Shown here in pieces: positions 9,421 through 50,299 of a stretch of DNA of 63,506 nucleotides (the stretch's first letter is position 1; every line of letters begins with the position of its first letter). A program made the translations under genes and the position numbers. A model generated the notes under the pieces. The model was not told the DNA's origin. It searched no databases and was given only the letters and a program-made list of their open reading frames with translations. The DNA comes from an uncultured Lachnoclostridium sp. (GTDB lineage: Bacteria > Bacillota > Clostridia > Lachnospirales > Lachnospiraceae). Where the stretch lies: positions 1-63,506 of the forward strand of contig CAZWLV010000001.1 of assembly GCA_964634715.1 (NCBI GenBank). The letters are read 5' to 3'.

Positions 9421-9430
9421 GGATCTTCTC

Positions 9431-10902: not shown

Positions 10903-10916
10903 GCAATACTCCTTGA

Positions 10917-12518: not shown

Positions 12519-12542
12519 CCTATTTTCCTCATATACTGCTAT

Positions 12543-12571: not shown

Positions 12572-12618
12572 ATATTATCACGGATTTCTTATATTTTTAT
12601 TAATTTTCCCCACAGACT

Positions 12619-12647
12619 TTGACATTTCCCCCAATTCCTTTTACATT
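12619..12647 (+). promoter_or_regulatory. candidate sigma-A promoter for the phosphoesterase gene
   Basis: -35 TTGACA (12619-12624), 17-nt spacer, -10 TACATT (12642-12647). The GGAGG RBS is at 12666-12670. Confidence 0.4.
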
Positions 12648-12675
12648 GGAACAAAGAAACGAACTGGAGGATCTT

Positions 12676-14109: not shown

Positions 14110-14117
14110 AAACCGTG

Positions 14118-14146
14118 TTGCTATTTTAAATATCTAATGTTATAAT
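14118..14146 (+). promoter_or_regulatory. candidate sigma-A promoter for the HTH-Ugd gene
   Basis: -35 TTGCTA (14118-14123), exactly 17-nt spacer, consensus -10 TATAAT (14141-14146). Confidence 0.5.
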
Positions 14147-14188
14147 TATCGAAGTTGATTTTTGTAATTATTGTTATTTAAAATAGCA
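14119..14188. promoter_or_regulatory. 14-bp perfect inverted repeat (candidate operator)
   Basis: TGCTATTTTAAATA (14119-14132) and its exact reverse complement TATTTAAAATAGCA (14175-14188). The left arm overlaps the -35 box. The right arm lies between the -10 and the RBS. Confidence 0.5.
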
Positions 14189-14216
14189 TCTCATTGATAG
14201 AAAGGATGATTTTCTT

Positions 14217-25129: not shown

Positions 25130-25204
25130 GTAAAACCTTCCTTTGTCACTTTTTGCATTTGTTGTCATTTTACGGGTTTTGAAACCCTTATTTTTACACC
25201 CTCG

Positions 25205-36022: not shown

Positions 36023-36778
36023 ATGTCAAACGAAGCAGCAGATATTTTCGTATCTGTCATCATTCCGGTATATAACGGTGCATCTTACATTTGCCAGTCT
36101 ATTGAATCTGCTTTATGTCAGCAGGTTCCACTGGAGATCATCGTGATCAATGACCGTTCTACCGATACTACTGAAAAAGTTCTTGAAAAATACCATACCG
36201 ATCCCCGCATACGGTATTTTAAAAATGACCGCAAACTGGGAGCCTCCGGCAGCCGTAACAAAGGAATCCAGTTAGCCAGAGGACGCTATATCGCTTTTCT
36301 TGATGCCGATGACTGGTGGGAACCGGAAAAACTGAAACGCCAGCTGGCTCTTATGGAAAAAGAACAGGCAGTTCTTTGCAGCACTGCAAGACGTCTTGTC
36401 TGTCCTGACGGAACTCCTATGAACAAGATCATTCACGTGCCTTCTAAGATCAGTTACCTGACACTTTTAAAACACAACTGTATCAACTGTTCTTCCGTCC
36501 TTGTTTTAAAAGAAGTTGCTGCGGAATTTCCTATGGAACACGAAGACAGCCACGAAGATTATATTATGTGGTTAAAAATACTCAAAAAATATAAATATGC
36601 CTGTGGGATTGATGAACCGCTGATCAATTACCGGCTGAGTGCTTCCGGAAAATCCGGCAGCAAGATCAAATCTGCAAAAATGACCTTTAAGGCCTACCGC
36701 TATATGGGATTTGGAATTTTCAAATCCGTACTCTGCTTTTGCAGTTATGCGATCCATGGCATTTTAAAATATCACTAA
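36023..36778 (+). CDS. family 2 glycosyltransferase (TuaG-like size and motifs)
   Basis: 251 aa. VSVIIPVYNGASYI, INDRSTDTT, LDADDWWEPEKL. Confidence 0.75.
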   Translation: MSNEAADIFVSVIIPVYNGASYICQSIESALCQQVPLEIIVINDRSTDTTEKVLEKYHTDPRIRYFKNDRKLGASGSRNKGIQLARGRYIAFLDADDWWEPEKLKRQLALMEKEQAVLCSTARRLVCPDGTPMNKIIHVPSKISYLTLLKHNCINCSSVLVLKEVAAEFPMEHEDSHEDYIMWLKILKKYKYACGIDEPLINYRLSASGKSGSKIKSAKMTFKAYRYMGFGIFKSVLCFCSYAIHGILKYH

Positions 36779-36862
36779 ACAGCGATAAAACAGGTTTTAC
36801 AGCTGAGCCAAAGCCATCAGATACAGCTTGCAGGTATCCTGTATTTTTCTCATTTCCTTAAC

Positions 36863-36923
36863 AAAAAACAGATGCGGTATCATAAAGAATGAGCAAAGCT
36901 TTTATGATATCACATCTGTTTTT
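36863..36923. terminator. long bidirectional terminator hairpin
   Basis: A stem of about 18 bp: CAGATGCGGTATCATAAA / TTTATGATATCACATCTG, with one mismatch and one G-T pair. It is flanked by AAAAAA and TTTTT. It lies between convergent genes ending at 36778 (+) and 36930 (-). Confidence 0.7.
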
Positions 36924-36929
36924 ATGAAA

Positions 36930-38465
36930 CTATTTGATTCCAAAATGTTCATCTAAGATCTGAAGCCGATCTTCGATACAACTTTTCAAATTTTCCACTG
37001 TGTCCTGACCGCCCCATGCATACCAGCCCAATACCCAAAAATCTCTTGCTGCTGCAGCACTTTCCGTTACTTTTTTTCTGTCAGTATCGATCTTTTCAAA
37101 AATATGCTCTTGTGAAAAGATTCCCTGTCTTAATTCTTTCCAGCGTTCTGCCAGACGAACGTCCAAATCCGGATATCGTTCCTTTAATGCTTCATATTCC
37201 ATACGGTATTCAATGATCTTTGAACTGTCCGGTGCATAAGAAAAACCGCTTCCATCGATCCAGTAGATCCCAAACGACATGTCCGTATCCCATGGAAGGA
37301 GACGCAGTGTCTGACTGCCGTTTTGATTTTCCACAATATAATAAATATTTTTGTAATTCAGATTATCCTTCATATTTCCAAGAAGGAGTAACAGCTGTAC
37401 ATCGATCCAGTTTTCCAGATCCAGCGTTTCAAAATCATTTTGTTCGAAAAATCCGACCATCGGCTCCAGTGCATTTGCTTCCTCTGGTGCATAGATCACT
37501 TCATAGGCTTCTTCCAGCTTTCGTCCGTCACTTGGATTTACATTCTGGCCTTTTAAAAGAATATCTTCTGAATCCAGTTTCAAATATTTCTTTTCGATCT
37601 TATTCTGTAAAAGACGGAGTCCCTCATATTTTCCGTTAATGATCACTTCACAGTATTCTCCGCCGGACATTCTCAGACTGCTGTCTTTTTCTTCTGCCAT
37701 TTCATTCCACAGATCGATCGCCAGCTTTTCCCGTACTTTCACATCATCAAACCACATTGGATTTAAAATATAATCATCATCAGATGCCAGTCCTGCCAGT
37801 GACAGATTCTGTTTTTCCCCATTTTCCTTTTTCAGGGAAAGCCTCAATGATTTCTTCTGAAAACTCATGGAACTGTAACCACGGACGTGCCACTGGATCC
37901 CGCTGTTTTTAACGATCAGCTGATGGCTGTTCTTCGTTTCCGGCTCCCAGAAATTCATCTCGCCTTCATAAATTTCCCGTTCTCTTTCGTCGATCTCTAT
38001 ACATTCCCCATGCATTTCCAGAACCGGAAGTGTCGTGAAAAATACGCCGTAAGAACTATAATTTCCGTCTTCATCGACTGCATAAAGGGAAAATTTACAT
38101 CCTTCTTCCACCGCTTTCGAAAAGGTTTCAAAACCTTCTTCCCATAAAAAATAAAGCTGATAATCCGAAAGACTGCTTTTTAACTGCCCTTCCAGCTGCT
38201 GATAAGCTGTATTTTCCTGCAGACTGCCGGAAATATACAAAGTGCGGCTCGTACTGTCATATGGCACCAAAGTCTGCTGAAGCTCCACGATATTATCTAA
38301 CGCCACTTCCTGCTTTATGAGCTGTCCCAGCTGTTCTTCCGAAATCACCGGAACTCCCATACACATCGAACGTTCCTCTCGGACTCTGAAACAGACAATC
38401 ATTAAAAACATCATTCCGCTAAGTAAGATAAGAATCTTTTTCATACTGATCTTCTTTTCTTTCAC
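36930..38465 (-). CDS. CotH-family protein, membrane-anchored (paralogue 3, divergent)
   Basis: GTG start with an AGGAG RBS. Anchor ILILLSGMMFLMIVCF. Motifs VRGYSSMSFQKKSLRLSL and LLPWDTDMSFG. Confidence 0.7.
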   Translation of the reverse strand: MKEKKISMKKILILLSGMMFLMIVCFRVREERSMCMGVPVISEEQLGQLIKQEVALDNIVELQQTLVPYDSTSRTLYISGSLQENTAYQQLEGQLKSSLSDYQLYFLWEEGFETFSKAVEEGCKFSLYAVDEDGNYSSYGVFFTTLPVLEMHGECIEIDEREREIYEGEMNFWEPETKNSHQLIVKNSGIQWHVRGYSSMSFQKKSLRLSLKKENGEKQNLSLAGLASDDDYILNPMWFDDVKVREKLAIDLWNEMAEEKDSSLRMSGGEYCEVIINGKYEGLRLLQNKIEKKYLKLDSEDILLKGQNVNPSDGRKLEEAYEVIYAPEEANALEPMVGFFEQNDFETLDLENWIDVQLLLLLGNMKDNLNYKNIYYIVENQNGSQTLRLLPWDTDMSFGIYWIDGSGFSYAPDSSKIIEYRMEYEALKERYPDLDVRLAERWKELRQGIFSQEHIFEKIDTDRKKVTESAAAARDFWVLGWYAWGGQDTVENLKSCIEDRLQILDEHFGIK

Positions 38466-38505
38466 AGGATCTCTCCTTTTTCTTTCGCATCGTATGCTGA
38501 GAATT

Positions 38506-40095
38506 TTACTGCTGGTTCATAAAGGTTTCCAGATCATAGATGGCACTGTCCAGATATTCCATACGTTTTCTGGCAAAATTCAAAACGATCCCTGCATCGT
38601 CTGCCTGTGCACTGTCCGGCCAGCGTGTCCGTTCTCTTTCATAAGCACCGGAATCTCTGATGATATGGTCAATGCTTTGGATCCTTTCTTCTAACTGTTC
38701 GTCAGAAAGAAGGGTCTCCCGAAATTGGGCATAAAGCTGCTGCACCTTTTCCACTGCATGATCGATATCGGAACGTATGAGAACATCTCCCATTTCCCAG
38801 TAAAAATACCGTGTCAGCAGTGACTCATCATATGCCGTATACCACGTTTTTTCATTTCCATCCGAACGGTTTCCCCATGTCAGATCCAGATCCCATGGTG
38901 CAAATGTAAAATCATATCCATCGGAAGATTTTCTCGCTACATAAAAGACATTTTTCTTCTGCTGGTCAAAGCCTGCCGTAACCTGAATATAAAGCCACAA
39001 TCTGAGTGCATTCTCGATATCAATCTGTTCACTGACCTTCTTTGTATCTGAAAGTGTCTGCAAAGAAACAAATTCAGCCATCGGACTCCATGCATTTTCA
39101 TCCATTTTTCCTTCTTTGATCTCAAATCCAAGCACATGCTCTTTGGGATCTTCTGCCTGCAAAAATGCTTCTTCTGTCAGTTCAAACGGATCTTCTCTTT
39201 TGTACAGGTAATCTTCCTCTGCCAGATTCAGCTGCTTTGCATCGATGGGTTCTTTCAGACCATACATTCCATAATAAGCTCCGTCTACCAGAAGCTCTAC
39301 GTATGTCATTCTGCTGTTATATGTGCTTCCCGTAAAAATTTCTTTGGAACCAAATTCATCCCACAGTTCCAGACTGAGTTTTTCCCGAAGTCTGGATTCA
39401 TCATTATAAATGGCATATAAGATCCAGTCATCATCTTTTCGCATTCCAAAAAGGGAAAGTTTATTTTTTTCTCTGGTTCCATCAGATGCTTCTTTTTTCA
39501 GGTTCAGTTTATATCCTTTTTTCGGATACAGCGTACTTGTATTTCCTCTGACATGCCCTTCATAAAGAGAGGTCTGGATTCCCTGTGATACAAAATCCGT
39601 ATCATAAAAAACGGCATTTCCTGCAATTTCTTTTTGTCCTTCGATCCCTTCTGCCGTAGTCAGGGTAATGACCGGAAGACCGGTAAAGATCAGATGATAT
39701 GTTGAAAACTCTGTTTCATCATAAATGAGAAATTTAATATCCCAGCCTTCTTTGATCACCTGTTTTTTATCATATTCCGTAAAATCTTCCGTAAAAAGGA
39801 TCTGATACTCTGTATCTTCACAGGAAAATTCCATTTTTTCCCATGCATCATCTTCCATATCCAGAGGTACATAAAATGTTTTTTCTACCTCATCCTTTGC
39901 AAGCAGGATCCCATTACAGAAAAAATCTCCAAATTCCAGACGTTCCACTCTGGTCTTTCCATTCCAGATTTCTTCTGTTTTGTCTGCCGAAACCGTATTA
40001 AAAACGGAAAACTGTTCTTTTTGAAATCCGTTTACGAAAAAAAGAACCAGAAGGAGCAGTAAAATACTCCCCCCTGCAATACACTTTTTGTACAT
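38506..40095 (-). CDS. CotH-family protein, membrane-anchored (paralogue 2)
   Basis: Start at ATG 40095 (AAGGAG RBS). Anchor GGSILLLLLVLFFV. Motifs VRGNTSTLYPKKGYKLNL and FAPWDLDLTWGN. Collinear with 10917-12518 over the full length. Confidence 0.8.
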   Translation of the reverse strand: MYKKCIAGGSILLLLLVLFFVNGFQKEQFSVFNTVSADKTEEIWNGKTRVERLEFGDFFCNGILLAKDEVEKTFYVPLDMEDDAWEKMEFSCEDTEYQILFTEDFTEYDKKQVIKEGWDIKFLIYDETEFSTYHLIFTGLPVITLTTAEGIEGQKEIAGNAVFYDTDFVSQGIQTSLYEGHVRGNTSTLYPKKGYKLNLKKEASDGTREKNKLSLFGMRKDDDWILYAIYNDESRLREKLSLELWDEFGSKEIFTGSTYNSRMTYVELLVDGAYYGMYGLKEPIDAKQLNLAEEDYLYKREDPFELTEEAFLQAEDPKEHVLGFEIKEGKMDENAWSPMAEFVSLQTLSDTKKVSEQIDIENALRLWLYIQVTAGFDQQKKNVFYVARKSSDGYDFTFAPWDLDLTWGNRSDGNEKTWYTAYDESLLTRYFYWEMGDVLIRSDIDHAVEKVQQLYAQFRETLLSDEQLEERIQSIDHIIRDSGAYERERTRWPDSAQADDAGIVLNFARKRMEYLDSAIYDLETFMNQQ

Positions 40096-40160
40096 AATTA
40101 CTCCTTTAAGGAAAATGCTGCGATCTACAGGTACCTTTGATACGATCACAGAAAACGATC

Positions 40161-41753
40161 TTAAAAAATTTCCAGCAGATAAACCTGCCATGCTTCATCA
40201 CTCTGCAATGGCTCTTCCATAGAAAGAGTACTTTCCGGAAACAGTTCTTTGATGAAGGCTCCGGCTTCTTCCTGATCTACATCATAGGAAATGTACAGTA
40301 AAATATGGTCTTCATTTTCCAGACATTCCATATCTTCTCTCACTTCGGAAGCATCTGTCAGGCTTTTTACATTATAAAATCCCTGATAATTCTTTAATAC
40401 CTGAACTGCATCAAAATAATCATACATATCCGTTTCTTCTCCCAGATATAATGCATAACAATCCTGATACTGTTCTGCAATTTCTAATCTCTGCGTCACT
40501 GCCGTATCTTTTGCATACGTATATGGAATCGAAGAATGTGCCATATGAATGACCGAAAGTCCTCCAAATCCCACCATACATAAAATGACTGCTGTTTTTT
40601 CAGAGATCCATTGTCTGAAAAACATCATCATCCAGCCGATGACTGCCAGATAGACCAGCGGATAAATCGGCATCAGATAACGGTCAATCTGATACGGTGC
40701 GATCTTTGTAACGATCAGAAAGTATCCGGCACTCGCAAACAGCAGGACTCCTGTTTTCCTGATCCACTGTTTTTCCGGATATTTTTTCCGAAAGATCCCA
40801 AATACTGCCAAAATGATCAATGCTGCCAAAACAAGGATTCCAAGACCTGTAAAAAGCTGTGAATCCAAAATTTCCCACATGGTCTTTAATTTTCCCAGAT
40901 AATCCGCAGAATTGCTGAAATTTTCTCTCGCTTCTGCTCCCCTGCTGGTACCAAAGATATGTTTTAACATCGATGGATAAAGTGCAATGCTTGCTGCCGC
41001 ACTGATCACAAACACCAAAACAAACTGAATCGTTTTTTTATAATCTTTTTGTCTTAAAAAGCGGATTCCATACCACAGGGCAAAAAAGAATGCAATGATC
41101 ACAAAATAGTATTGTGTCAGTACACCGGCCGTCAGTGTCAGCCCTAAGAAAACATATCCCTTCAAAGGAATCTGATCCTGCTCCATATATTTCAGATAAA
41201 CCAGTGCATGGAGCAGCACCAGCAACGTCATAAGCATATACATCCGCACAAAAACGACTGTATTTTGACCTGCAAAGCTGATCCCAAAAAGAAATGCCGC
41301 TAAAAGTCCGCATTCCCTGCTTTGAAAAAGTTCTTTTCCAAGTGCATACAAAACGACCGTACACATCAGGAAAAAAAGAAGATTAAATGCAATTCCTGTT
41401 CCATAGGAAAATTGATCCGGAACCAGAGAGCTTGCCGTATGCAAAAAAAGATAAAATAACGGCGGATGTACGTCCTGATCCTGATTATGATAAGGAATCG
41501 CATACTCAAACCGATGTTCCGGCTGTGCTGACACATAATCCACATACCAGGTTTCATCCAGCCATCTGTTTTTTGGAACTTCTCCGATATAATCCGGATT
41601 ATTTGCAGAAACATAACTAAAAAGCTCATCCGGTGCCAGATAATTTTTTTGTCCTGTCCAGAACAAAGCCAGGCCAAGCTGTATCAGGCAGATGAAGATC
41701 AGCAGGAAAAGATCTCTTTTTCCCTTTGTCAGACTGCTCATTTTCTTACTCAT
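40161..41753 (-). CDS. GT-C fold membrane glycosyltransferase (GT39/ArnT/PMT-like)
   Basis: 530 aa with more than 10 predicted TM helices. An acidic motif in the first loop (APDELFSY) and HPPLFYLFLH. The soluble C-terminal domain is about 130 aa. Confidence 0.65.
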   Translation of the reverse strand: MSKKMSSLTKGKRDLFLLIFICLIQLGLALFWTGQKNYLAPDELFSYVSANNPDYIGEVPKNRWLDETWYVDYVSAQPEHRFEYAIPYHNQDQDVHPPLFYLFLHTASSLVPDQFSYGTGIAFNLLFFLMCTVVLYALGKELFQSRECGLLAAFLFGISFAGQNTVVFVRMYMLMTLLVLLHALVYLKYMEQDQIPLKGYVFLGLTLTAGVLTQYYFVIIAFFFALWYGIRFLRQKDYKKTIQFVLVFVISAAASIALYPSMLKHIFGTSRGAEARENFSNSADYLGKLKTMWEILDSQLFTGLGILVLAALIILAVFGIFRKKYPEKQWIRKTGVLLFASAGYFLIVTKIAPYQIDRYLMPIYPLVYLAVIGWMMMFFRQWISEKTAVILCMVGFGGLSVIHMAHSSIPYTYAKDTAVTQRLEIAEQYQDCYALYLGEETDMYDYFDAVQVLKNYQGFYNVKSLTDASEVREDMECLENEDHILLYISYDVDQEEAGAFIKELFPESTLSMEEPLQSDEAWQVYLLEIF

Positions 41754-42952
41754 TCTACATTTTCTCCAAAAGTATCCGGTCTTGCCGGATCAAAAGCTTC
41801 ATTTGCCCACATAACCGTTACGAGATTTTCTGTTTCTGATAAATTGATAATATTATGGGTATATCCCGGCAGCATATGAACCGCCTGGATCTTTTCTCCG
41901 GATACTTCAAACTCCATGATCTCATCAGAACCGATCTTCCGTTCCTGAATCAGCCCATGACCTGCTACGACCATGAAAAATTCCCATTTACTGTTATGCC
42001 AGTGCTGCCCTTTTGTGATGCCCGGCTTGCTGATATTGACAGAAACCTGACCATGGGAAGCCGTTTTTAAAAGTTCCGTAAAAGATCCTCTGTCATCACA
42101 ATTCATCTTCAGATCAAAGATCGTTTTTTCTTTCGGAAGATAAGACAGATACGTGGAATAAAGTTTTTTTGCAAAACTATCCTTTGGAATTTCCGGCATC
42201 ATCAGCGTTTCCGGCTGTGCTTTGAATTCCAAAAGAAGATCAACGATCTCTCCTAACGTCACTTTATGCGTAACCGGAACGTAACAATACGCTCCTTCTG
42301 TATGTTCCACAGGTTCCATTCCATCATAAACGCACCGATGCTCTTTTCCTTCCAGTGCATCTAACAGTTCTTCTACCAGATCATCGATATAAAGAAGCTC
42401 CAGCTCTGTCGTTCGGTCATTGACCGTAAATTCCAGATCATTGGCTACGGCATGACAAAACGTTGCTACTGCGGAATTATAATTCGGACGGCACCATTTA
42501 CCAAACAGATTTGGAAAACGATAGACTAACACCTTTGCTCCCGTTTCTTTTGAATACTGAAAGAACAGTTCTTCTCCTGCAAGTTTGGATCTTCCATACT
42601 CGGAATCTCCAAAACGTCCCATCAGTGTCGCCTGAATGGAACTGCTTAACATGACCGGACAGGTATTTTGATATTTTTTCAATGTCGTTAATAAAACTTC
42701 AGAAAAGCCAAAATTTCCTTCCATAAATTCAGAAAGTTCTTTCGGACGGTTCACACCTGCCAGATGAAATACAAAATCAGCTTCTTTACAATACTCTTCC
42801 AGCAGATCCGGATCGGTATCCAGATCGTATTCATAGATTTCTTCGATCTTAAGTTCCGGACGGGTACGGTTCTTATTTTCTTTTATATTTTTCAGATTGG
42901 CTGTCAGATTTTTTCCTACAAATCCTTTTGCTCCTGTTACTAAGATCTTCAT
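41750..42952 (-). CDS. fnlB: CapF/FnlB/WbjC-type bifunctional reductase (SDR + cupin) of the UDP-L-FucNAc pathway
   Basis: MKILVTGAKGFVGKNL is the SDR N-terminus. The C-terminal cupin is KGQHWHNSKWEFFMVVAGHG. The ATG at 42952 forms an ATGA overlap with the upstream stop. Confidence 0.8.
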   Translation of the reverse strand: MKILVTGAKGFVGKNLTANLKNIKENKNRTRPELKIEEIYEYDLDTDPDLLEEYCKEADFVFHLAGVNRPKELSEFMEGNFGFSEVLLTTLKKYQNTCPVMLSSSIQATLMGRFGDSEYGRSKLAGEELFFQYSKETGAKVLVYRFPNLFGKWCRPNYNSAVATFCHAVANDLEFTVNDRTTELELLYIDDLVEELLDALEGKEHRCVYDGMEPVEHTEGAYCYVPVTHKVTLGEIVDLLLEFKAQPETLMMPEIPKDSFAKKLYSTYLSYLPKEKTIFDLKMNCDDRGSFTELLKTASHGQVSVNISKPGITKGQHWHNSKWEFFMVVAGHGLIQERKIGSDEIMEFEVSGEKIQAVHMLPGYTHNIINLSETENLVTVMWANEAFDPARPDTFGENVE

Positions 42953-44109
42953 GATTTTCTCCATACCATTTTGTTGACAACGCCTGTGTAACTCTGGATG
43001 ATCTTTACAACTTTATCCGATACATTTTCTTCTGTATAATCCGGTACCGGAATGCCAAGATCACCATTTTTGTTCATTTCCACTGCCACATCAACTGCCT
43101 GAAGCAGACTGTCCCCTTCGATCCCTGCCAAAATAAAGCATGCCTTATCCAGTGCTTCCGGACGTTCTGTCGAAGTTCTGATGCAGACAGCCGGGAACGG
43201 ATGTCCCACGGAAGTAAAAAAGGAAGATTCCTCCGGTAAGGTTCCGGAATCCGAAACAACGGCAAACGCATTCATCTGAAGGCAGTTATAATCATGAAAT
43301 CCCAAAGGTTCATGACGGATCACTCTTGGATCCAGTTCAAATCCTGACTCTTCCAGTCTTTTTCTGCTTCTTGGATGACAGGAATACAGGATCGGCATAT
43401 CGTAAGTCTCTGCCATTTTATTGATCGCCGTAAAAAGAGACGTAAAATTCTTCTCGGTATCAATATTTTCTTCACGATGTGCAGATAAAAGGATATATTT
43501 TCCTTTTTCCAATCCCAGACGCTGATGAATATCCGATGCTTCGATCTTCGAAAGATTGTTATGCAGCACTTCTGCCATCGGAGATCCTGTCACATAGGTT
43601 CTCTCTTTTGGAAGTCCGCAGTCAGCAAGATAACGTCTTGCATGCTCAGAATATGCCATATTCACATCAGAAATGATATCTACGATACGGCGGTTTGTTT
43701 CTTCCGGAAGACACTCGTCTTTGCACCGGTTTCCGGCTTCCATATGAAAGATCGGGATATGCAGTCTTTTGGCACCGATCACTGATAAACAGCTGTTGGT
43801 ATCCCCTAAGACAAGGACTGCATCCGGCCGGATCTCTGCCATCAGCTGATAAGATTTTGCAATGATATTTCCCATGGTTTCCCCAAGATCACTGCCAACG
43901 GCATTCAAATACACTTCCGGATCTTCCAGTTCCAGATCTTTAAAAAATACACCGTTTAAATTATAATCATAATTCTGACCGGTATGGGCAAGGATCGTAT
44001 CAAAATATTTTCTGCATTTTTTGATCACTGCGGAAAGACGGATGATCTCCGGTCTGGTTCCCACGATGATCAGAAGTTTTAATTTTCCGTTATTTTTAAA
44101 TGCTGCCAT
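42949..44109 (-). CDS. fnlC: UDP-N-acetylglucosamine 2-epimerase (non-hydrolysing; CapG/FnlC/WbjD-type)
   Basis: 386 aa. LIIVGTRPEIIRL, LVLGDTNS, HMEAGNR, VSDSGT. Confidence 0.85.
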   Translation of the reverse strand: MAAFKNNGKLKLLIIVGTRPEIIRLSAVIKKCRKYFDTILAHTGQNYDYNLNGVFFKDLELEDPEVYLNAVGSDLGETMGNIIAKSYQLMAEIRPDAVLVLGDTNSCLSVIGAKRLHIPIFHMEAGNRCKDECLPEETNRRIVDIISDVNMAYSEHARRYLADCGLPKERTYVTGSPMAEVLHNNLSKIEASDIHQRLGLEKGKYILLSAHREENIDTEKNFTSLFTAINKMAETYDMPILYSCHPRSRKRLEESGFELDPRVIRHEPLGFHDYNCLQMNAFAVVSDSGTLPEESSFFTSVGHPFPAVCIRTSTERPEALDKACFILAGIEGDSLLQAVDVAVEMNKNGDLGIPVPDYTEENVSDKVVKIIQSYTGVVNKMVWRKS

Positions 44110-44111
44110 AG

Positions 44112-45158
44112 TTATTTCTCCATTTTTGCCAGCTCTTCCTGAATATAGGAAAGTGCCAGCAGTTTTTCTTTTACTTCTTCAACACCGAGAAGTTTTGTAT
44201 TGTTGCTGTTAAATTCTGTCAGTGTATTACGTTTGGCATCTCCTTCACTGAAATACTGATCGTAATTCAGGCTTCTCTGATCTGCCGGTACACGGTAAAA
44301 TTGTCCCATATCTACGGCTTTGGCACACTCTTCGTTCGTCAGAAGGGTTTCGTACATTTTTTCACCGTGACGGATCCCGATGATCTTGATCTCTTCTTTC
44401 TTTCCGCCAAACAGTTCACAGACTGCTTCTGCCTGAGTCTTGATCGTACACGCCGGTGCTTTCTGTACCAGAATATCTCCGCTGTTTCCATGTTCAAACG
44501 CAAACAGCACCAGATCTACTGCTTCTTCCAGTGACATGATAAATCTCGTCATCGTTGGATCCGTGATGGTGATCGGCTGTCCATTTCTGATCTGATCGAT
44601 CCAAAGCGGGATTACAGATCCTCTGGAACACATTACATTTCCATAACGGGTACAGCAGATCTTTGTTTTTTCCGGATCTACCGTTCTTGATTTGGCAACT
44701 GCCACACGTTCTTCCAAAGCTTTTGTGATCCCCATGGCATTGACCGGATAAGCTGCTTTATCTGTCGAAAGACAGATGACGGATTTTACGCCTTCTTCAA
44801 TAGCGGCTGTCAAAACATTATCCGTCCCGATCACATTGGTCTTGACGGCTTCCATCGGGAAAAATTCACAAGACGGTACCTGTTTTAATGCTGCTGCATG
44901 GAAAATGTAGTCTACGCCATGCATCGCTGCTTTTACAGAAGAAAGTTCTCTGACATCTCCGATATAAAATTTGATCTTATGTGCCGCTTCCGGCATTTTT
45001 GCCTGAAATTCATGGCGCATATCATCCTGTTTTTTCTCATCACGGGAAAATACACGGATCTCTCCGATATCTGTCTGCAAAAATCTGTTCAGTACGGCAT
45101 TTCCAAAAGATCCTGTTCCTCCTGTGATCAATAAGGTCTTTCCTTCAAAAACTGACAT
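44112..45158 (-). CDS. fnlA: UDP-GlcNAc 4,6-dehydratase/5-epimerase (CapE/FnlA/WbjB-type)
   Basis: KTLLITGGTGSFGNAVLNRFL, FSRDEKKQ, ICLSTDKAAYPVNAMGITKA, CCTRYGNVMCSRGSVIP. Confidence 0.9.
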   Translation of the reverse strand: MSVFEGKTLLITGGTGSFGNAVLNRFLQTDIGEIRVFSRDEKKQDDMRHEFQAKMPEAAHKIKFYIGDVRELSSVKAAMHGVDYIFHAAALKQVPSCEFFPMEAVKTNVIGTDNVLTAAIEEGVKSVICLSTDKAAYPVNAMGITKALEERVAVAKSRTVDPEKTKICCTRYGNVMCSRGSVIPLWIDQIRNGQPITITDPTMTRFIMSLEEAVDLVLFAFEHGNSGDILVQKAPACTIKTQAEAVCELFGGKKEEIKIIGIRHGEKMYETLLTNEECAKAVDMGQFYRVPADQRSLNYDQYFSEGDAKRNTLTEFNSNNTKLLGVEEVKEKLLALSYIQEELAKMEK

Positions 45159-46632: not shown

Positions 46633-47466
46633 TTAAATATAGGAGCTTAAATATTCACCTGCATCACAGGCAATGATCTCTCCTGATATACATTTTGAGG
46701 CATCACTTAACAGGAAACAGGCAACTTCTGCTACCTCTTCCGGCAAAAAGACTCTGCCCGGTGCAACTCTGTCCAGATAAAGATTATCCTCCGGCGAGAT
46801 CTTGGTCATGCCTGATACGGTGATCCCCGGTGCGATTCCATTGACACGGACTCCATCCCGGTAAAATCTTCTGGATAAGCCCCGTACTAAGGAATTGATC
46901 CCTGCTTTTGTCAGCCCGTAAGGGACATCGTCACACTGGAACCCTCTCTCGGATGACATAAACAGCAGCACAGCTTCTTTTTTCGGTGTTTTTTTCTTTA
47001 AAAATGCCTGTGCCATAAAGTAAGAACTTTCCAGATTGGTGCGAAACTGCCGTTCATAATCTTCTCTATTTACCTGAAGGATATTTTCTTCATGAAGGGA
47101 AATGCCGGCATTAAAGACCAGTGCATCAAATTCTGCACCCATCATCTCTTCCGCATTCTGTAAAAATTCTTCGTTTTTTTCTATCTGACTTACATCAAAT
47201 TGGATAGAATGACAGTTGCTTCCAAGCTCTTTTTCCGTCTGTTCCAGACGTTCTTTATCTCTTCCGACGATCAGTACTTCTGCTCCCTCCAAAATGCATT
47301 TCTTTGCGATCGCAAGTCCGATACCGCTGTTTCCTCCTGTAACGAGAATCTTCTTTCCCGACAGGATCCCACCGTAATTGATCTGCGAAACATTCACCTG
47401 CACCTGCATTTGGGGGATTCCTTTAAAAATATAATATAATACTCTTTTCAGATATTCTTTCATCAT
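46633..47466 (-). CDS. classical short-chain dehydrogenase/reductase
   Basis: KILVTGGNSGIGLAIAKK (TGxxxGxG), NAGI, and the S...YGLTK catalytic pattern. Confidence 0.8.
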   Translation of the reverse strand: MMKEYLKRVLYYIFKGIPQMQVQVNVSQINYGGILSGKKILVTGGNSGIGLAIAKKCILEGAEVLIVGRDKERLEQTEKELGSNCHSIQFDVSQIEKNEEFLQNAEEMMGAEFDALVFNAGISLHEENILQVNREDYERQFRTNLESSYFMAQAFLKKKTPKKEAVLLFMSSERGFQCDDVPYGLTKAGINSLVRGLSRRFYRDGVRVNGIAPGITVSGMTKISPEDNLYLDRVAPGRVFLPEEVAEVACFLLSDASKCISGEIIACDAGEYLSSYI

Positions 47467-47467
47467 A

Positions 47468-49204
47468 CTATCCTTTTTTCAGCTTTGATTTGATCAGCTC
47501 GATGTTCTGTGTTCCGATCTTCTGTTTCAGATACTGTTTGATCGATGAGTTTTTTTCGATATTACGCATCAAAGACAGTGCTTCGCTTTCCAACGCAGAA
47601 TCCGTAAATACTTCAAATAAGATCGGTTTTTCTGTCTGTTCTTTTGTTACGAAACGCTCCATTGCTGATGCAAATTCTTCTTTATCCGATGCACTCAGAT
47701 ATTCAAATCCAAGATCTTCCGCATAATGCTTTACCAGCTCCGGTGACTGCTTTCCGTAGTGTCCTGCTGCTGCTACATAAAGATCTGCCTCTTCTTTCAG
47801 GATCGATGCCGGATGAGAATAATGCCTAAATTCCGTTCCTCTTCCGTTATTCACTAACAGGATGCGGAGATTTTTGCCCACATGGCGGTTTCCAAGGGCA
47901 TTCATGTCATAGAAAAAGGCAAGATCACCTACGACTGCAAAATAGCAGTCTGCCTCTTCTGCCAATGATGCTCCCAAAAGAGTGGAAAGACATCCGTCAA
48001 TCCCAAAACCTCCCACATTCGATGCCGAACGGATCGTGTCTGAAAATTCAAAGAAATTCCATGATCTTAAGCTGTTTAAGATTCCAAAATGGATCACAGA
48101 ATTTTCCGGCAGTTTCGGTGCAAGCTGTTTTGCCGCCCAGATATTTGAAAACGGAAGTTCCGGTATTTCTTTTCGAAGTTCTTTTAATTTTGCTGAAAAT
48201 CTTTCATAAGACTCATTTTTCACCGGTTCCGGCTGATAGTTTGCATATTCCCTGAAAAACTGTTTTTCCTGCATTTCAAATACATGGGTAAGCTTTCGGA
48301 AACGGTCTCTGATCTCCCCGTCAGGCGAAACCCTCCATACTTCCTTTGCCGGAAGCATATAATAATCTCCGGACACTTCTCCGATATCGATCAGAAGATC
48401 GATCGTATATTCTTCCGTCTTTAACTGCTCCTGCGAACCTAACAACGCTCCCAAAATGCCGTATTTTCCATGATATCCGCTGGTATGGTCACACCATACA
48501 AATGCACCGTAACGTTCACAGAACTCTTCCACTGCTTTCGTCTCATCTTCTGTCCATTTTTTATGGGAACCTGCAAACACTGCAATGGTCTTTTCCTTTG
48601 AAATCTTTGGAAATTCATCTCCCAAAACGATCCTTTGGATCACTCTCGTCTTTGGAAGCTCCTCTACCGTAAAATCATAGCTAAACGATGCGATCAGGTT
48701 GATATGTACCGGACCGCCTCCATCTTTACGCAGTGCAAGGATCGCTTGGTTCGCCAGAAGATTACATTTCCATTCATCATCTTCTCCGGCGATCTCTGAA
48801 AGTGTTACGGATAATTTTACTGCATCATTCGGGACATTCGTTCGATCCAGTATCTGTGGAAGATGCTGCCCCGGAAGGTCGGATCCTAACATAGAAGTCA
48901 CTGCCAGTACCGGCAGTTTCCGGTAATAAGCTTCCGTCAGTCCCGGAAAATAGTTTCTTGATGCAGTCGCACCGGTACAGGAAAGTACCACAGCTTCTCC
49001 TGATTCCTGTGCAAGCCCGCAGGCAATATAAGCTGCAGAACGTTCGTCTGCCGCCGAATAAATTTCAAACCACGGATCATGCTGCACACTGGCAGCAAAC
49101 ATCATATTGGTCGTTCCCGGAGAAATAACGATTTTTTTGATCCCATGCCCTTTTAAAAGTGAAATGAGGATCAATACATTTTTTCTGACTGTATATTTAT
49201 TCAT
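47468..49204 (-). CDS. thiamine-diphosphate-dependent enzyme (MenD / acetolactate-synthase-like fold)
   Basis: The N-terminal PYR domain is ISPGTTNMMFA...ADERSAAYIACGLAQESGEAVVLSCTGATASRNYFPGLTEAYY. The C-terminal ThDP motif is VVGDLAFFYDMNALG...LLVNNGRG. Start at ATG 49204 with a GGAGGG RBS. Confidence 0.75.
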   Translation of the reverse strand: MNKYTVRKNVLILISLLKGHGIKKIVISPGTTNMMFAASVQHDPWFEIYSAADERSAAYIACGLAQESGEAVVLSCTGATASRNYFPGLTEAYYRKLPVLAVTSMLGSDLPGQHLPQILDRTNVPNDAVKLSVTLSEIAGEDDEWKCNLLANQAILALRKDGGGPVHINLIASFSYDFTVEELPKTRVIQRIVLGDEFPKISKEKTIAVFAGSHKKWTEDETKAVEEFCERYGAFVWCDHTSGYHGKYGILGALLGSQEQLKTEEYTIDLLIDIGEVSGDYYMLPAKEVWRVSPDGEIRDRFRKLTHVFEMQEKQFFREYANYQPEPVKNESYERFSAKLKELRKEIPELPFSNIWAAKQLAPKLPENSVIHFGILNSLRSWNFFEFSDTIRSASNVGGFGIDGCLSTLLGASLAEEADCYFAVVGDLAFFYDMNALGNRHVGKNLRILLVNNGRGTEFRHYSHPASILKEEADLYVAAAGHYGKQSPELVKHYAEDLGFEYLSASDKEEFASAMERFVTKEQTEKPILFEVFTDSALESEALSLMRNIEKNSSIKQYLKQKIGTQNIELIKSKLKKG

Positions 49205-49264
49205 AGTTCCCTCCGTTCTTTTTTCATAAATTTTCTGATTACTGTACAAACAGTACTTATGGAC

Positions 49265-50299
49265 TTAGTGTATCGATCCTTCAGAACCGTTTTCAGCTGT
49301 AAGCATCTTTTTCAATAATTTTTGAGAGTTTTCCACATAGTCCTCTAATTTCTGGCTGCTCTGTCCACAATCCACATGATAAACTTTTTCCGAAACCCTG
49401 TCTGCCTGAAAACCGCTTGCCTCGATCAGTTCTGCCTGTCTGGAACTTAACATGGAATGATGGACACAATCTACTTTTTTTCTGAAAATATACGAAAATG
49501 CCAGCCCGTGAAACGAATTGGTTACGATACAGGAGGCATTCCTGATCAATGCCAGAAAATCTTCCACACCCGCATCTGACATAAATTCATCACAGTTCTG
49601 AATCCGGTCGTTCATCGGGTGAAGTGATATGATCTTTTTTCCGGTCTCTTTTTGTAATTTTTCTGTTAATCGGTCAATTTCTTCTGAATATTCCAGAGAA
49701 TATACAAGAATATGTCCTTTTCGATTGCTGTATTCTGAAGTTTCTGCCAGTTTTTCGTAAATTTCCGGTTTTTTGTAAAAAAGAAAGGTCGGATCACAAA
49801 CAGTTTCGGCCGATATTCCCATCTTTTCTAAAATTTGTCGGGCAGAATCTTCCCTGACCGTTAAAAAACGATAATTTTCAAGCACCTTTTTATGAGAACG
49901 AAAATACGCTTCTTCTTTTTGTGAAAGTTTTCCCGTACCAAAACTTGCCGCATACGAACACAATGCTCCATAGTTTCCCTTTGGTTCGATCCAGAAATCA
50001 TCTTCTCCGGTAATCCCTAAATTCCATACCTGATCGGAACCGATGAGCACCCGGTCATAGGTTTCTTTTACAGAACTTCTCTTAAAATATTGTTTTCGAA
50101 ACTGCTCTATTTTTTTCTCAAATCCCCTTGGCAGAAATTTTTTCCGAATCTTTGTTTTTTTACTGATCATCTGCTCCGGAACATAATCGATCACGCTGAC
50201 CTGTGCCCCATAAGCCTTACAGGCTTCCTGCAGTGCATAGCACTGAAGCACTGCTCCGTAATTATCTGCAAATTGAAATGTCAGAATCCCTGTTTTCAA
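49265..50299 (-). CDS. polysaccharide pyruvyl transferase family protein
   Basis: The N-terminus KTGILTFQFADNYGAVLQCYALQ is typical of the CsaB/WcaK-like pyruvyl transferase family. Assignment is by eye. Confidence 0.65.
   Translation of the reverse strand: MKTGILTFQFADNYGAVLQCYALQEACKAYGAQVSVIDYVPEQMISKKTKIRKKFLPRGFEKKIEQFRKQYFKRSSVKETYDRVLIGSDQVWNLGITGEDDFWIEPKGNYGALCSYAASFGTGKLSQKEEAYFRSHKKVLENYRFLTVREDSARQILEKMGISAETVCDPTFLFYKKPEIYEKLAETSEYSNRKGHILVYSLEYSEEIDRLTEKLQKETGKKIISLHPMNDRIQNCDEFMSDAGVEDFLALIRNASCIVTNSFHGLAFSYIFRKKVDCVHHSMLSSRQAELIEASGFQADRVSEKVYHVDCGQSSQKLEDYVENSQKLLKKMLTAENGSEGSIH

Follow-up and report, generated by a model that had tools for sequence, protein, structure and literature searches.

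CotH-family proteins with a predicted membrane anchor at the end of a wall-polysaccharide gene run, and their wider partnership with VTC and DUF4956 genes

Introduction

CotH of Bacillus subtilis works among coat proteins during coat assembly, is inactive as a kinase when D228 or D251 is mutated and has been reported to be a distant relative of Fam20C-type kinases (PMC7821199). A cotH gene is also an accessory gene of Pel loci, together with genes for a polyphosphate polymerase and a DUF4956 protein, in streptococci, clostridia and bifidobacteria, for example as SIR_1592-1594 of Streptococcus intermedius (PMC7112168, PMC12345266). This three-gene synteny was reported in 2025 as not found outside Pel loci (PMC12345266).

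Here we describe a window of 63,506 nucleotides (the whole stretch of DNA that was analysed) from a gut bacterium of the Lachnospiraceae, in which the known CotH family occurs in a new setting that is worth an experiment, as putatively membrane-anchored proteins at the end of a wall-polysaccharide operon. Two other groups of enzymes bear comparison. Among the secretory-pathway glycan kinases, which have a kinase-like fold, Fam20B is a xylose kinase and POMK acts after the GT39 enzymes POMT1/2. [quoted passage not shown]

Results

Three CotH-family proteins

The three CotH-family genes proposed in the initial annotation were all recovered as open reading frames, and all pass the Pfam CotH (PF08757) cut-off of 23.8 bits (Table 1). 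That an uncommon family has three copies within 63 kb, in a synteny that is kept in relatives, is not due to chance. The annotation had judged by eye that CotH2 is collinear with CotH1 and about half identical to it; pairwise alignment gave 256/529 identical residues (48%), collinear from end to end. CotH3 is more divergent, as had been noticed, with 26% identity to CotH2 and 24% to CotH1. Its GTG start, also noted before, is preceded by AAAGGAGAG, which ends 6 nt before the GTG. Translation could alternatively begin at codon 8, an in-frame ATG; the homologues, at 509-522 aa, agree with the long form. CotH2 starts with an ATG at 40095, with AAAGGAG ahead of it.

Table 1. Features of the window discussed in the text
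Feature	Position	Strand	Properties
LCP ligase	4390-5502	minus	Pfam; rest of conserved CotH1 module
WcaJ-type Und-P glucose phosphotransferase	5492-6913	minus	WcaJ equivalog, 497 bits (cutoff 410.75)
GT2	6917-7996	minus	Pfam; rest of conserved CotH1 module
GT2	7867-9420	minus	Pfam; rest of conserved CotH1 module
DUF4956 membrane protein	9431-10108	minus	225 aa; Pfam DUF4956, E 4e-12
VTC-domain protein	10201-10920	minus	239 aa; no TM segment; Pfam VTC, E 9e-38
CotH1	10917-12518	minus	533 aa; Pfam CotH (PF08757), E 4e-35, 122 bits; hydrophobic anchor at residues 4-22
Purple-acid-phosphatase-like metallophosphoesterase	12619-14109	plus	divergent; Pfam Metallophos + Pur_ac_phosph_N
TuaG-like GT2	36023-36778	plus	convergent; 251 aa; no TM segment; Pfam Glycos_transf_2, E 3e-37
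Hairpin + U-run, intrinsic-terminator-like	36858-36923	minus	directly 3' of CotH3 stop
CotH3	36930-38465	minus	511 aa; Pfam CotH (PF08757), E 4e-32, 112 bits; GTG start; hydrophobic anchor at residues 10-28
CotH3 WDTDMSFG	37269-37292	minus	
CotH3 DNLNYKN	37347-37367	minus	catalytic loop
CotH3 RGYSS	37869-37883	minus	
CotH2	38506-40095	minus	529 aa; Pfam CotH (PF08757), E 4.6e-39, 135 bits; hydrophobic anchor at residues 6-24
CotH2 WDLDLTWG	38872-38895	minus	
CotH2 DQQKKN	38950-38967	minus	
CotH2 RGNTS	39535-39549	minus	
GT-C fold membrane glycosyltransferase, ArnT/PMT_2-like	40161-41753	minus	530 aa; ~11 hydrophobic segments
GT-C D94-V-H-P-P-L99	41457-41474	minus	invariant; conserved columns of homologue alignment
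GT-C D42-E43	41625-41630	minus	invariant; conserved columns of homologue alignment
FnlB/WbcJ-like reductase	41750-42964	minus	Pfam + NCBIfam matches
WecB/FnlC-type 2-epimerase	42949-44109	minus	Pfam + NCBIfam matches
FnlA/CapE-type dehydratase	44112-45158	minus	Pfam + NCBIfam matches

In a simple hydropathy scan each CotH protein had exactly one N-terminal hydrophobic stretch, with 2-4 lysines ahead of it, in line with the anchor that had been proposed for all three copies. By the positive-inside rule, the proteins are predicted to be type-II anchored, with their catalytic domains facing the cell-wall side. We know of no membrane anchor in B. subtilis CotH.

All three proteins keep the W-D-x-D-x-[ST]-[WF]-G motif (CotH1 reads WDLDLTWG, like CotH2), as had been claimed, and on their sequences they are CotH-family members with an intact catalytic site. 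Profile alignments to B. cereus CotH (5JD9; E 1.8e-10 and 1.4e-9) placed D377/N382 of CotH2 on 'FDGFVHN' and D402 on 'WDYD', and R183-G184 and K192-K193 aligned with 'YRG' and 'EKKSY'. The catalytic Asp...Asn loop, the metal-binding WDxD motif and the N-lobe RG/KK motifs of the Bacillus proteins are thus retained, and D377 and D402 are the counterparts of B. subtilis D228 and D251. In CotH2 numbering, D377, K381, N382, W401, D402, D404, R183 and G184 were invariant in 59/59 sequences covering the three paralogue types.

The protein-kinase-like fold is likewise shared with Bacillus CotH: the AF2 model of CotH2 (pLDDT 93.3), which provides the model-based fold evidence for the CotH2/CotH3 pair, had B. 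cereus CotH 5JD9 as its best Foldseek match (E 1.3e-16, TM(target) 0.72) and also matched 5JDA. Beyond CotH, the same search gave weak PI3K/PI4K matches only, and no specific sequence or structure match to Fam20B or POMK was found. The differences from the Bacillus proteins are nevertheless considerable. Identity to B. cereus CotH is only ~17%, and the proteins described here have ~170 extra N-terminal residues, made up of the membrane anchor and a family-specific beta-rich domain (~residues 55-165 in CotH2). The CotH2-type N-domain always occurs at that position and solely in proteins of ~520-590 aa or their fragments. Furthermore, the genes lie in wall-polysaccharide operons, not beside cotB and cotG, and their products are predicted to act beyond the cytoplasmic membrane.

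The end of the gene run and the neighbouring GT-C enzyme

CotH2 and CotH3 had been placed at the end of a heteropolysaccharide operon. They are indeed the final genes of a co-directional run, ~26.5 kb of Wzx/Wzy-type polysaccharide genes that reaches from at least position 63471 down to 36930 and is predicted to be an operon. The terminator-like hairpin after CotH3 had a dG of -24.5 kcal/mol and a z of -5.38 by RNA folding, and 0/200 shuffles were as stable. With an A-run on its other side, the hairpin could act for the convergent GT2 gene as well. Directly upstream of the GT-C gene, and overlapping its start by 4 nt, lies a UDP-L-FucNAc-type sugar cassette (41750-45158), which is also found ahead of the CotH/GT-C pair in loci L001, L003, L053 and L054. 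The convergent GT2, a candidate partner of GT-C as a polyprenyl-phosphate-sugar synthase, scored 198 bits against NCBIfam TuaG, below the 400-bit cutoff. Its position is retained in L001-L003, and L053, L055 and L059 have a small GT2 gene next to the CotH and GT-C genes or between them.

The AF2 model of the GT-C enzyme (pLDDT 91.6) matched ArnT best in Foldseek (5F15/5EZM, E 5e-7, TM 0.52), followed by STT3/PglB/AglB (OST) and Pmt4; DPY19 and ALG9 were matched as well. It resembles ArnT (GT83) and PMT_2/PMT (GT39) in its fold, in the acidic pair of the first loop and in the DVHPPL motif. In contrast to these families, however, its own sequence had no Pfam or NCBIfam match above threshold, it has no MIR domain and it ends in a small alpha/beta domain (residues 430-530). 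In the homologue alignment only 5/30 sequences reached PMT_2 and 5/30 reached PMT. The enzyme had been described as GT39-like and PMT/ArnT-like; the GT-C fold and the likeness to ArnT hold, but membership of GT39 could not be demonstrated, and we therefore call it ArnT/PMT_2-like.

GT-C and CotH are adjacent, in shuffled gene order, in eight retrieved loci (L001-L003, L053, L054, L055 and L059 among them). No CotH was found near GT-C homologues at 46% and 28% identity (two loci), and the pairing is thus recurrent rather than obligatory. Of the 28 GT-C homologues whose contigs measure 20 kb or more, 18 were on a contig equal in size to one with a listed CotH match, a proxy for sharing one contig. 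Such counts are inflated by shared ancestry, as the loci are mostly close relatives from one Lachnospiraceae group. In L055 and L059 the block also contains MBOAT genes, weak GDSL/SGNH-like genes or both, together with GtrII or GT2-GtrA genes, all of them further functions in modification after export; MBOAT/SGNH-type gene pairs are of the kind that O-acylate exported polymers. In L054 and L059 the block directly abuts a PAP-UGDH(-CotH-VTC-DUF4956) block. Some CotH paralogues in relatives carry CHB_HEX_C_1, Fn3_assoc or LTD domains.

CotH with VTC and DUF4956

A deeper link, absent from the initial annotation, connects CotH to VTC and DUF4956. CotH1 is the first gene of a CotH-VTC-DUF4956 module, and its stop overlaps the VTC start. 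By its sequence, the VTC protein is a putative triphosphate-tunnel, polyphosphate-polymerase-like enzyme: its profile matched the catalytic domain of yeast Vtc4 (3G3Q) weakly (E 9e-4), and in this match the R-x-R and YFDD motifs line up. It shares with yeast VTC the catalytic core, the tunnel residues and an obligate membrane-protein partner (PMC9911596). Unlike the yeast protein, it is free-standing, without an SPX domain or TM segment, and its partner is DUF4956 (3 or 4 hydrophobic segments; four were called, of which two overlap) instead of the VTC (DUF202-type) TM domain; polyphosphate synthesis and export are putative here. The divergent metallophosphoesterase is probably a surface phosphoesterase, since its sequence shows, after an internal Met, a lipoprotein-type signal (…LLLLSVCMIGC…), and its position is retained in L005-L012, L054 and L059, among others.

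The gene order of the CotH1 module was repeated in ~30 genome loci, and [1-2 CotH]-VTC-DUF4956-GT2-GT2-WcaJ-LCP was present, whole or in part, in 32/50, most of them from Lachnospiraceae or unclassified Clostridia. In metagenomes, DUF4956 adjoined VTC in 32/32 informative loci (the search was begun from VTC), and CotH lay within 3.5 kb of VTC in 28 of these. In five of the 32 it was undetected in the fetched stretch: four had none whatever, and L087 was assessed by clade HMM scoring only, with two flanking ORFs checked against Pfam. Thus, the partnership of CotH with VTC and DUF4956 is stronger and much wider than that with GT-C.

In a neighbour-joining tree both GT-C-linked CotH clades adjoin or branch from VTC-linked clades: the CotH1-type and CotH2-type clades are sisters, and CotH3 clusters with the VTC-linked CotH of L057. 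CotH3 forms its own orthologous group, down to ~35% identity in Oscillospiraceae, where a CotH3-type gene sits in a bare DUF4956-VTC-CotH trio. On this sequence evidence, CotH2 and CotH3 appear to be offshoots of the wider CotH-VTC-DUF4956 system. They lie ~27 kb from the sole VTC-DUF4956 copy in the window, and we infer their coupling to it from the relatives. The idea of one paralogue per polymer was not borne out: two CotH genes end the same Wzx/Wzy operon, one is in the WcaJ-LCP module, none is in the TagF/TagGH cluster, and relatives have 1 to 6 copies in tandem.

The segment 9431-12518 has exactly the make-up of the Pel-locus trio, with a CotH predicted to be extracytoplasmic, a VTC-type polyphosphate-polymerase-like gene and DUF4956 at an exopolysaccharide locus. 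It differs in that pel genes were not found anywhere in the window, and the trio is joined to GT2-GT2-WcaJ-LCP or, in L057, stands alone. In addition, CotH2 and CotH3 are no longer part of the trio and have GT-C as a neighbour instead, and a TM anchor replaces the FN3 tail of the Pel-locus CotH.

Discussion

What could CotH2 and CotH3 do? Our tentative reading, to which we give slightly less than an even chance, is that they act outside the cytoplasm as phosphotransferases and tailor a wall glycopolymer that has been exported. They would add phosphate to a glycopolymer of the wall or capsule after its export, in an outer compartment that they would share with GT-C and, in relatives, with the MBOAT/SGNH-type pairs. 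Action as a glycan kinase on the GT-C product is conceivable by analogy: like Fam20B and POMK, CotH would be a non-cytoplasmic enzyme of kinase fold that phosphorylates a sugar installed by a glycosyltransferase. This likeness is one of concept, and the GT-C here is not demonstrably a GT39 enzyme as in the POMK/POMT case. Fam20B and POMK use lumenal ATP, of which we know no equivalent outside the Gram-positive cell, and the lack of an obvious ATP source there, to our knowledge, counts against extracytoplasmic phosphotransfer. Conceivably all three paralogues obtain their phosphoryl donor, across the membrane, from the 9431-12518 module, a separate idea that we consider unlikely; we know of no precedent for polyphosphate as a donor with a protein-kinase-like fold. 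The pairing with VTC-DUF4956 in relatives suggests, but does not show, phosphorylation of wall sugars outside the cell. In favour of the tailoring reading, S. intermedius deleted for SIR_1594, its secreted CotH homologue, had altered Pel levels and aggregation (PMC12345266).

That the substrate would be a glycan has to be weighed against the characterised CotH enzymes, which are all protein Ser kinases acting on Ser-rich proteins (PMC7821199). The CotH proteins could accordingly be extracytoplasmic Ser/Thr protein kinases, like spore-coat CotH and Fam20C. Their targets would be proteins that are secreted or displayed at the surface, or components that assemble the polymer (LCP ligase, GT-C or polymerase), and they would thereby control polymer assembly and leave the glycan itself unmodified. 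Their catalytic residues are the same in kind as those of B. cereus CotH, and regulatory protein phosphorylation was proposed for the Pel-linked CotH (PMC7112168). We regard this as doubtful, since no Ser/Lys/Arg-repeat protein was noticed among the window ORFs and their Pfam annotations, and the recurring neighbours are polymer-tailoring enzymes. Moreover, the runs of 5-6 tandem paralogues that have diverged, like the fusions to carbohydrate-binding-type domains, are more easily explained by varied glycan substrates than by a single regulatory target.

The near-obligate CotH-VTC-DUF4956 trio could instead handle polyphosphate chains, made by VTC, passed through the membrane by DUF4956 and attached or anchored by CotH on a wall polymer or protein, so that the envelope is decorated with polyphosphate. 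The match to the Vtc4 polymerase domain with its tunnel residues kept, the conserved divergent surface phosphoesterase of purple-acid-phosphatase type and the coupling of polyphosphate synthesis to translocation in yeast VTC (PMC9911596) would fit. We nevertheless consider it improbable: the Vtc4 match is weak and bacterial VTC activity is a prediction, Pfam shows no relationship between DUF4956 and the VTC transmembrane domain, and neither CotH2 nor CotH3 has a VTC-DUF4956 pair of its own close by. Nor do we know of any enzyme with a protein-kinase-like fold that transfers polyphosphate.

Compared with the phosphotransferase reading, a sporulation role, with the locus building a spore-surface glycan and CotH acting in coat or exosporium assembly, is very improbable. 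The family name, its founding members and the source, a Lachnospiraceae/Lachnoclostridium-like bacterium, speak for it, and many Lachnospiraceae form spores. Against it are the N-terminal anchor, neighbours with vegetative wall functions (LCP ligase, TagF/TagGH, a GH25 lysozyme with CWB2 repeats, Wzx/Wzy) and homologous trios in non-sporulating streptococci and bifidobacteria (PMC7112168).

Finally, there is hardly any chance that the proteins are non-catalytic and, like pseudokinases, bind the polymer or serve as its scaffold, much as fungal CotH has been proposed to act as an adhesin. Such a part would agree with the description of CotH in Mucorales as invasins and proteins of the spore surface (PMC9973265), and the family-specific N-domain may serve for binding, but the invariance of every tested active-site residue across three diverged paralogue types is unexpected for pseudokinases.

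CotH2 and CotH3 close a co-directional polysaccharide gene run

The genes of the region that holds CotH2 and CotH3, two of the three CotH-family paralogues in the window, all lie on the minus strand and are transcribed from high to low coordinates. The gap between the membrane glycosyltransferase gene upstream (GT-C) and CotH2 is 65 nt and that between CotH2 and CotH3 is 40 nt; an alternative ATG start of CotH3 is possible at codon 8. Upstream of GT-C the co-directional run reaches at least position 63471 and contains a Wzx flippase, a Wzy-like protein, a pyruvyl transferase, several GT2 and GT4 enzymes, a Bac_transf initiating transferase and a GtrII-type GT-C. At the other end, a long hairpin with a U-run lies directly 3' of the CotH3 stop codon (dG -24.5 kcal/mol, z = -5.4 in RNA folding; none of the shuffled sequences was equally stable), and a TuaG-like GT2 gene is convergent beyond it. 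A scan for consensus terminators did not pick up this AT-rich hairpin; folding confirmed it. The initial annotation had placed the CotH pair after the GT-C gene, at the close of a co-directional polysaccharide gene run, and the gene order together with the terminal hairpin bears this account out. Its further suggestion of one paralogue per polymer fits poorly with the layout, and we rejected it. We also rejected chance or an annotation artefact as the source of the three CotH copies.

Features of the window and of homologous loci retrieved from databases (L001, L002 and so on)
Feature	Position	Strand	Remarks
FnlA/FnlC/FnlB-type UDP-L-FucNAc cassette	45158-41750	-	Directly upstream of GT-C
Polytopic membrane protein (GT-C), 530 aa	41753-40161	-	Start overlaps FnlB stop by 4 nt
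CotH2	40095-38506	-	ATG start preceded by AAAGGAG
CotH3	38465-36930	-	GTG start, 6 nt past AAAGGAGAG
CotH1-VTC-DUF4956	9431-12518	-	Contiguous trio, then GT2, GT2, WcaJ-type, LCP ligase
CotH-VTC-DUF4956-GT2-GT2-WcaJ-LCP module, complete or partial	Window 4390-15695; L004-L029, L041-L045, L054		Often with divergent PAP-like lipoprotein and UGDH; not a Pel locus
PAP-like metallophosphoesterase	12619-14109	+	Lipoprotein-type signal after internal Met (MKKRYQILFSLLLLLSVCMIGCG)
UGDH (UDP-glucose/GDP-mannose dehydrogenase)	14217-15695	+	N-terminal HTH_3 (Cro/C1-type) domain
GH25 lysozyme	23117-25168	-	Three CWB2 wall-binding repeats
TPP-dependent enzyme (593 aa, acetolactate-synthase-like), short-chain dehydrogenase, polysaccharide pyruvyl transferase	46633-50299	-	In Wzx/Wzy run
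ORF, 403 aa	50296-51507	-	No Pfam family
ORF	54320-55477	-	Weak NAD_synthase/PP-loop match only
ORF, 497 aa	60906-62399	-	No Pfam family
L001-L003			Fnl-GT-C-CotH2-CotH3-<GT2-TagF, exact window arrangement
Galactokinase-like GHMP kinase and sugar-1-phosphate nucleotidyltransferase	L001 8058-9985; L002 2457-4384		Inserted between GT-C and CotH2 orthologues
L053			Fnl-CotH-GT2-GT-C
L054			Fnl-CotH-GT-C (754 aa), then <UGDH <PAP, CotH-VTC-DUF4956
L055			MBOAT-x-CotH3 type-(weak GDSL match)-MBOAT-GT-C-GT2/GtrA
L059			GtrII-CotH-GT2-GT-C-CotH(LTD/CHB_HEX_C/Fn3_assoc)-CotH-(weak GDSL match), then <UGDH <PAP
VTC-DUF4956, no CotH detected	L111 6923-10075		Convergent PMT_2 GT-C, 552 aa
VTC-DUF4956, no CotH detected	L093 1635-8370		GT4, 931-aa YidC/LtaS-like fusion, TagF-like gene

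The CotH paralogues have a predicted kinase fold and an intact active site

Judged by Pfam, CotH1, CotH2 and CotH3 belong without doubt to a known family: they score 122, 135 and 112 bits with the CotH model (PF08757), all above its curated cutoff of 23.8 bits; the NCBIfam search gave no model for them. Over their full length CotH2 and CotH1 share 48% identity, and CotH3 is 24-26% identical to either. An AlphaFold2 model of CotH2, built from a 59-sequence alignment (pLDDT 93.3), had as its sole strong PDB match the B. cereus CotH kinase (5JD9/5JDA; E 1.3e-16, TM(target) 0.72), followed by weak matches to PI3K/PI4K. The model points to the atypical protein-kinase-like fold of B. cereus CotH; for CotH3 the same fold is predicted from sequence only. 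Family profiles also matched 5JD9 by sequence (E 1.8e-10 and 1.4e-9), and it was reached by profiles only, a single-sequence phmmer search of the PDB with CotH2 giving no match.

In the profile alignment to 5JD9, D377...N382 of CotH2 (FDQQKKN) falls on B. cereus FDGFVHN, W401-D402-L-D404 on WDYD, and R183-G184 and K192-K193 on YRG and EKKSY. In 59 sequences of three paralogue types, R183 and G184 do not vary and at least 90% keep K192; the RG and KK pairs present in CotH2 are putative N-lobe nucleotide-binding motifs. The first Asp of WDYD follows the loop Asp by 23 residues, a spacing that matches D228 and D251 of B. subtilis CotH, where substitutions yield catalytically inactive protein (PMC7821199). 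The predicted catalytic residues are D377/N382/D402 in CotH2, D367/N373/D393 in CotH3 (within D367-N-L-N-Y-K-N373 and W392-D-T-D) and D380/N385/D408 in CotH1, and the catalytic-loop and WDxD residues are invariant across the 59 sequences. The alignment with a characterised Bacillus CotH, proposed in the initial annotation as a check, found the catalytic Asp and Asn, WDxD and RG/KK residues kept. By sequence criteria the paralogues are predicted to be active enzymes, not pseudokinases, and with these residues in place a non-catalytic role is less likely.

Each of the three proteins has one N-terminal hydrophobic helix with Lys residues before it. Because of these Lys residues and the positive-inside rule, we predict an N-in, C-out signal anchor with the ectodomain facing the wall. 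The anchor is separated from the kinase domain by a beta-rich domain, ~110 residues long. Among 1.84 billion representative proteins searched, only 83 clusters had this N-domain, always at the same N-terminal position in proteins of ~520-590 aa or fragments thereof, and by this distribution it is a private module of this CotH clade. Spore-coat CotH is a cytoplasmic (mother-cell) protein with no known export signal, encoded next to genes for Ser-rich substrates of the cotB/cotG type. The present paralogues fall outside the spore-coat class (cytoplasmic, without an export signal, with cotB/cotG-type neighbours), since all three carry an N-terminal anchor and have polysaccharide genes as neighbours; no cotB/cotG-like gene was noticed among those neighbours in the window. 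A role in the spore is thus less likely.

The enzyme upstream of CotH2 is tentatively called an ArnT/PMT_2-like GT-C

Searched with E values as high as 1, the sequence of the 530-aa GT-C protein matched neither a Pfam family nor an NCBIfam model. Among 30 homologues, five match PMT (PF02366, best E 1.1e-5) and five match PMT_2 (best E 2.6e-8), and a precomputed PMT_2 label stands on ~14 of 106 homologues in the database. A sequence profile searched against PDB sequences gave noise only, e.g. uL23. With the AlphaFold2 model (pLDDT 91.6), the top Foldseek match was ArnT (E 5e-7), at a TM of only 0.52 and with OST and Pmt4 scoring close to it; further fold matches were STT3/PglB/AglB (OST), DPY19, Pmt4, ALG9 and PimE. 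The protein is thus clearly modelled with a GT-C fold, its C-terminus forming a small alpha/beta domain. D42-E43 and D94-V-H-P-P-L99 are invariant in the 30 homologues, and they look like the acidic pair of the first loop and the DVHPPL motif found in PMT/ArnT-type enzymes. The initial annotation had proposed a GT-C enzyme; Foldseek upholds the GT-C fold, and the invariant D42-E43 fit the acidic pair of the first extracytoplasmic loop. Its 'GT39-like' label was overstated: ArnT is the top fold match, the protein has no PMT match of its own, and no MIR domain appears among the Pfam families listed for it and the 30 homologues, 530 aa being too short for a MIR insert. We rejected GT39 for want of a PMT match and a MIR domain; on the model, the enzyme is best called an ArnT/PMT_2-like GT-C.

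The CotH and GT-C homologues came from Lachnospiraceae and Lachnoclostridium metagenome-assembled genomes. Some loci repeat the window arrangement exactly and others shuffle it (see the table); the insert of GHMP kinase and nucleotidyltransferase, found in two related contigs, is absent from the window. In L054 and L059 the GT-C/CotH block directly adjoins the PAP-UGDH(-CotH-VTC-DUF4956) block. Contig size gave a crude proxy for co-occurrence: 28 GT-C homologues lie on contigs of 20 kb or more, and for 18 of them the contig is as long as that of a listed CotH2- or CotH3-type match. Around the GT-C homologues of L058 and L060 (46% and 28% identity) no CotH was found within 8 kb. The pairing is therefore recurrent, not universal, and its examples are mostly fairly close relatives; that it recurs and survives gene-order shuffling argues for function. 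In L058 the GT-C homologue is preceded by a 924-aa YidC/sulfatase fusion that resembles the 931-aa fusion of L093.

CotH is linked to VTC and DUF4956 in relatives

The stop of CotH1, the third paralogue, overlaps the start of a gene with a polyphosphate-polymerase-like VTC domain (Pfam E 9e-38), which is followed by the membrane protein DUF4956. The WcaJ-type Und-P-glucose phosphotransferase of this module scores above its NCBIfam equivalog cutoff, and a purple-acid-phosphatase-like (PAP-like) lipoprotein and an HTH-fused UDP-glucose dehydrogenase (UGDH) diverge from it. CotH2 and CotH3 are not contiguous with VTC and DUF4956, the single copies of which in the window lie ~27 kb away. The VTC profile matched the polyphosphate-polymerase domain of yeast Vtc4 (3G3Q, E 9e-4), and in this match the YFDD and R-x-R motifs line up; neither VTC nor DUF4956 matched anything when searched as a single sequence against the PDB, and NCBIfam had no model matching GT-C, VTC, DUF4956 or the PAP-like protein.

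The CotH profile retrieved 50 genome loci; by tblastn and HMM scans, 32 of these carry one or two CotH genes followed by VTC-DUF4956-GT2-GT2-WcaJ-LCP, either complete or truncated where the contig ends. A cultured Laedolimicola strain (L014, L017) is among the carriers of the CotH-VTC-DUF4956 module. A VTC profile yielded 80 metagenome loci, 32 of them informative (at least 2.5 kb on each side). DUF4956 adjoins VTC in all 32, and CotH lies within 3.5 kb of VTC in 26 of the 32 by a clade-specific HMM; Pfam added L088 and L120, whose divergent LTD/CHB_HEX_C-CotH genes this HMM had missed. Linkage of CotH, VTC and DUF4956 is thus near-obligate in relatives. The VTC-DUF4956 pairs of L111 and L093, with no detected CotH, are still beside envelope genes. 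One CotH3-type gene from Oscillospiraceae (34% identity) belongs to a bare DUF4956-VTC-CotH trio that neighbours gyrA and gyrB. In a rough neighbour-joining distance tree of 113 CotH sequences, drawn with no support values, the GT-C-linked CotH2 clade is sister to the VTC/PAP-linked CotH1 clade, and the CotH3 clade is next to the VTC-linked L057 protein.

Earlier mention of the trio is confined to Gram-positive Pel loci, where it was counted among the accessory genes (PMC7112168). In S. intermedius, where the trio is SIR_1592-1594, deletion of the CotH homologue altered Pel levels and aggregation, and the same 2025 study did not find the three-gene CotH/polyphosphate-polymerase/DUF4956 synteny beyond Pel loci (PMC12345266). 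The window itself showed no pel genes.

The fusion of UGDH to a regulator-type domain is unusual, and the HTH-UGDH is kept beside the PAP-like gene in L006, L008, L012, L054 and L059. The listed TTG start of the PAP-like gene is probably ~20 codons too far upstream. L013, L015 and L016 come from bins named Alistipes onderdonkii, Bulleidia sp. and Prevotella sp., yet their CotH-VTC-DUF4956 module is of the Lachnospiraceae type, and its VTC is 64-67% identical to that of the window; this points to mis-binning or possibly horizontal transfer.

Possible substrates and phosphoryl donor of the CotH proteins

To our knowledge, CotH has so far been understood only as a spore-coat protein kinase and a fungal surface protein, and we know of no function assigned to the many secreted bacterial homologues (cellulosomes, Pel loci, Bacteroidota). 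Extracytoplasmic CotH homologues beside exopolysaccharide genes were already known. What appears to be new is the anchored, N-domain-bearing architecture, the pairing of two independent CotH offshoots with a GT-C near the close of a Wzx/Wzy operon, and a CotH-VTC-DUF4956 trio common outside Pel loci, embedded in a conserved WcaJ-LCP wall-polymer module. The locus is a clean case: three predicted-outward, active-site-intact CotH proteins belong to wall-polysaccharide operons in a gut lineage that is abundant, and there is a tight, conserved genetic link to a polyphosphate-polymerase-like pair.

We tentatively favour an exported wall glycopolymer as the substrate, a reading with somewhat less than an even chance of being right. 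It is favoured because the recurring neighbours make or tailor polymers outside the membrane (GT-C, MBOAT, SGNH-like genes, LCP), because some paralogues are fused to carbohydrate-binding-type domains, and because a conserved surface phosphoesterase accompanies the module. Tandem arrays also resemble substrate diversification: L030-L040, from Oscillospiraceae, 'Candidatus Ventricola' and unclassified Clostridia genomes, hold 3-6 diverged CotH paralogues (5-6 in the arrays that bear on this argument) at 24-30% identity to the window copies, and VTC, DUF4956, GT-C and PAP were not detected in their fetched flanks. The initial annotation had reached the glycan-kinase idea by analogy with POMT/POMK and Fam20B, a fair heuristic, though the likeness seen here goes no further than gene adjacency.

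That the paralogues are instead protein kinases is less likely but a serious alternative, because no activity other than protein phosphorylation has ever been shown for the family; we know of no sequence signature separating glycan-acting from protein-acting members. Transfer of whole polyphosphate chains by CotH is less likely than either.

As to the donor, CotH together with free-standing VTC and DUF4956 could form a trans-membrane phosphoryl supply line that uses polyphosphate and not ATP, a proposal that we regard as rather unlikely. On the cytoplasmic side VTC would make polyphosphate from ATP, and DUF4956 would pass the chain across the membrane like the yeast VTC channel; the CotH ectodomains would then draw on this chain in place of ATP and phosphorylate wall glycopolymers that GT-C and other neighbouring enzymes make or tailor. 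If true, this would account for a kinase working outside a Gram-positive cell and would add a new class to the wall modifications of gut Clostridia, streptococci and bifidobacteria. Literature searches on a glycan-kinase or polyphosphate role for CotH yielded only the two Pel studies (PMC7112168, PMC12345266) and passing mentions.

Either substrate would be informative. Phosphorylated glycans would mean a new modification chemistry for Gram-positive envelopes, with a bearing on charge, phage receptors and immune recognition, and would also pose, in general terms, the question of what fuels a kinase outside the cytoplasm; phosphorylated proteins would make these enzymes a bacterial counterpart of secretory-pathway kinases. 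The donor for a kinase on the outside is of general interest.

Other genes of the window

The TPP-dependent enzyme, short-chain dehydrogenase and pyruvyl transferase of the Wzx/Wzy run suggest an unusual sugar side-group pathway; the first two also occur in L001. The GH25 lysozyme lies between a TagF/TagGH teichoic-acid-like cluster and a further Bac_transf/GT2 cluster, and may be an autolysin that reads one locally encoded polymer.
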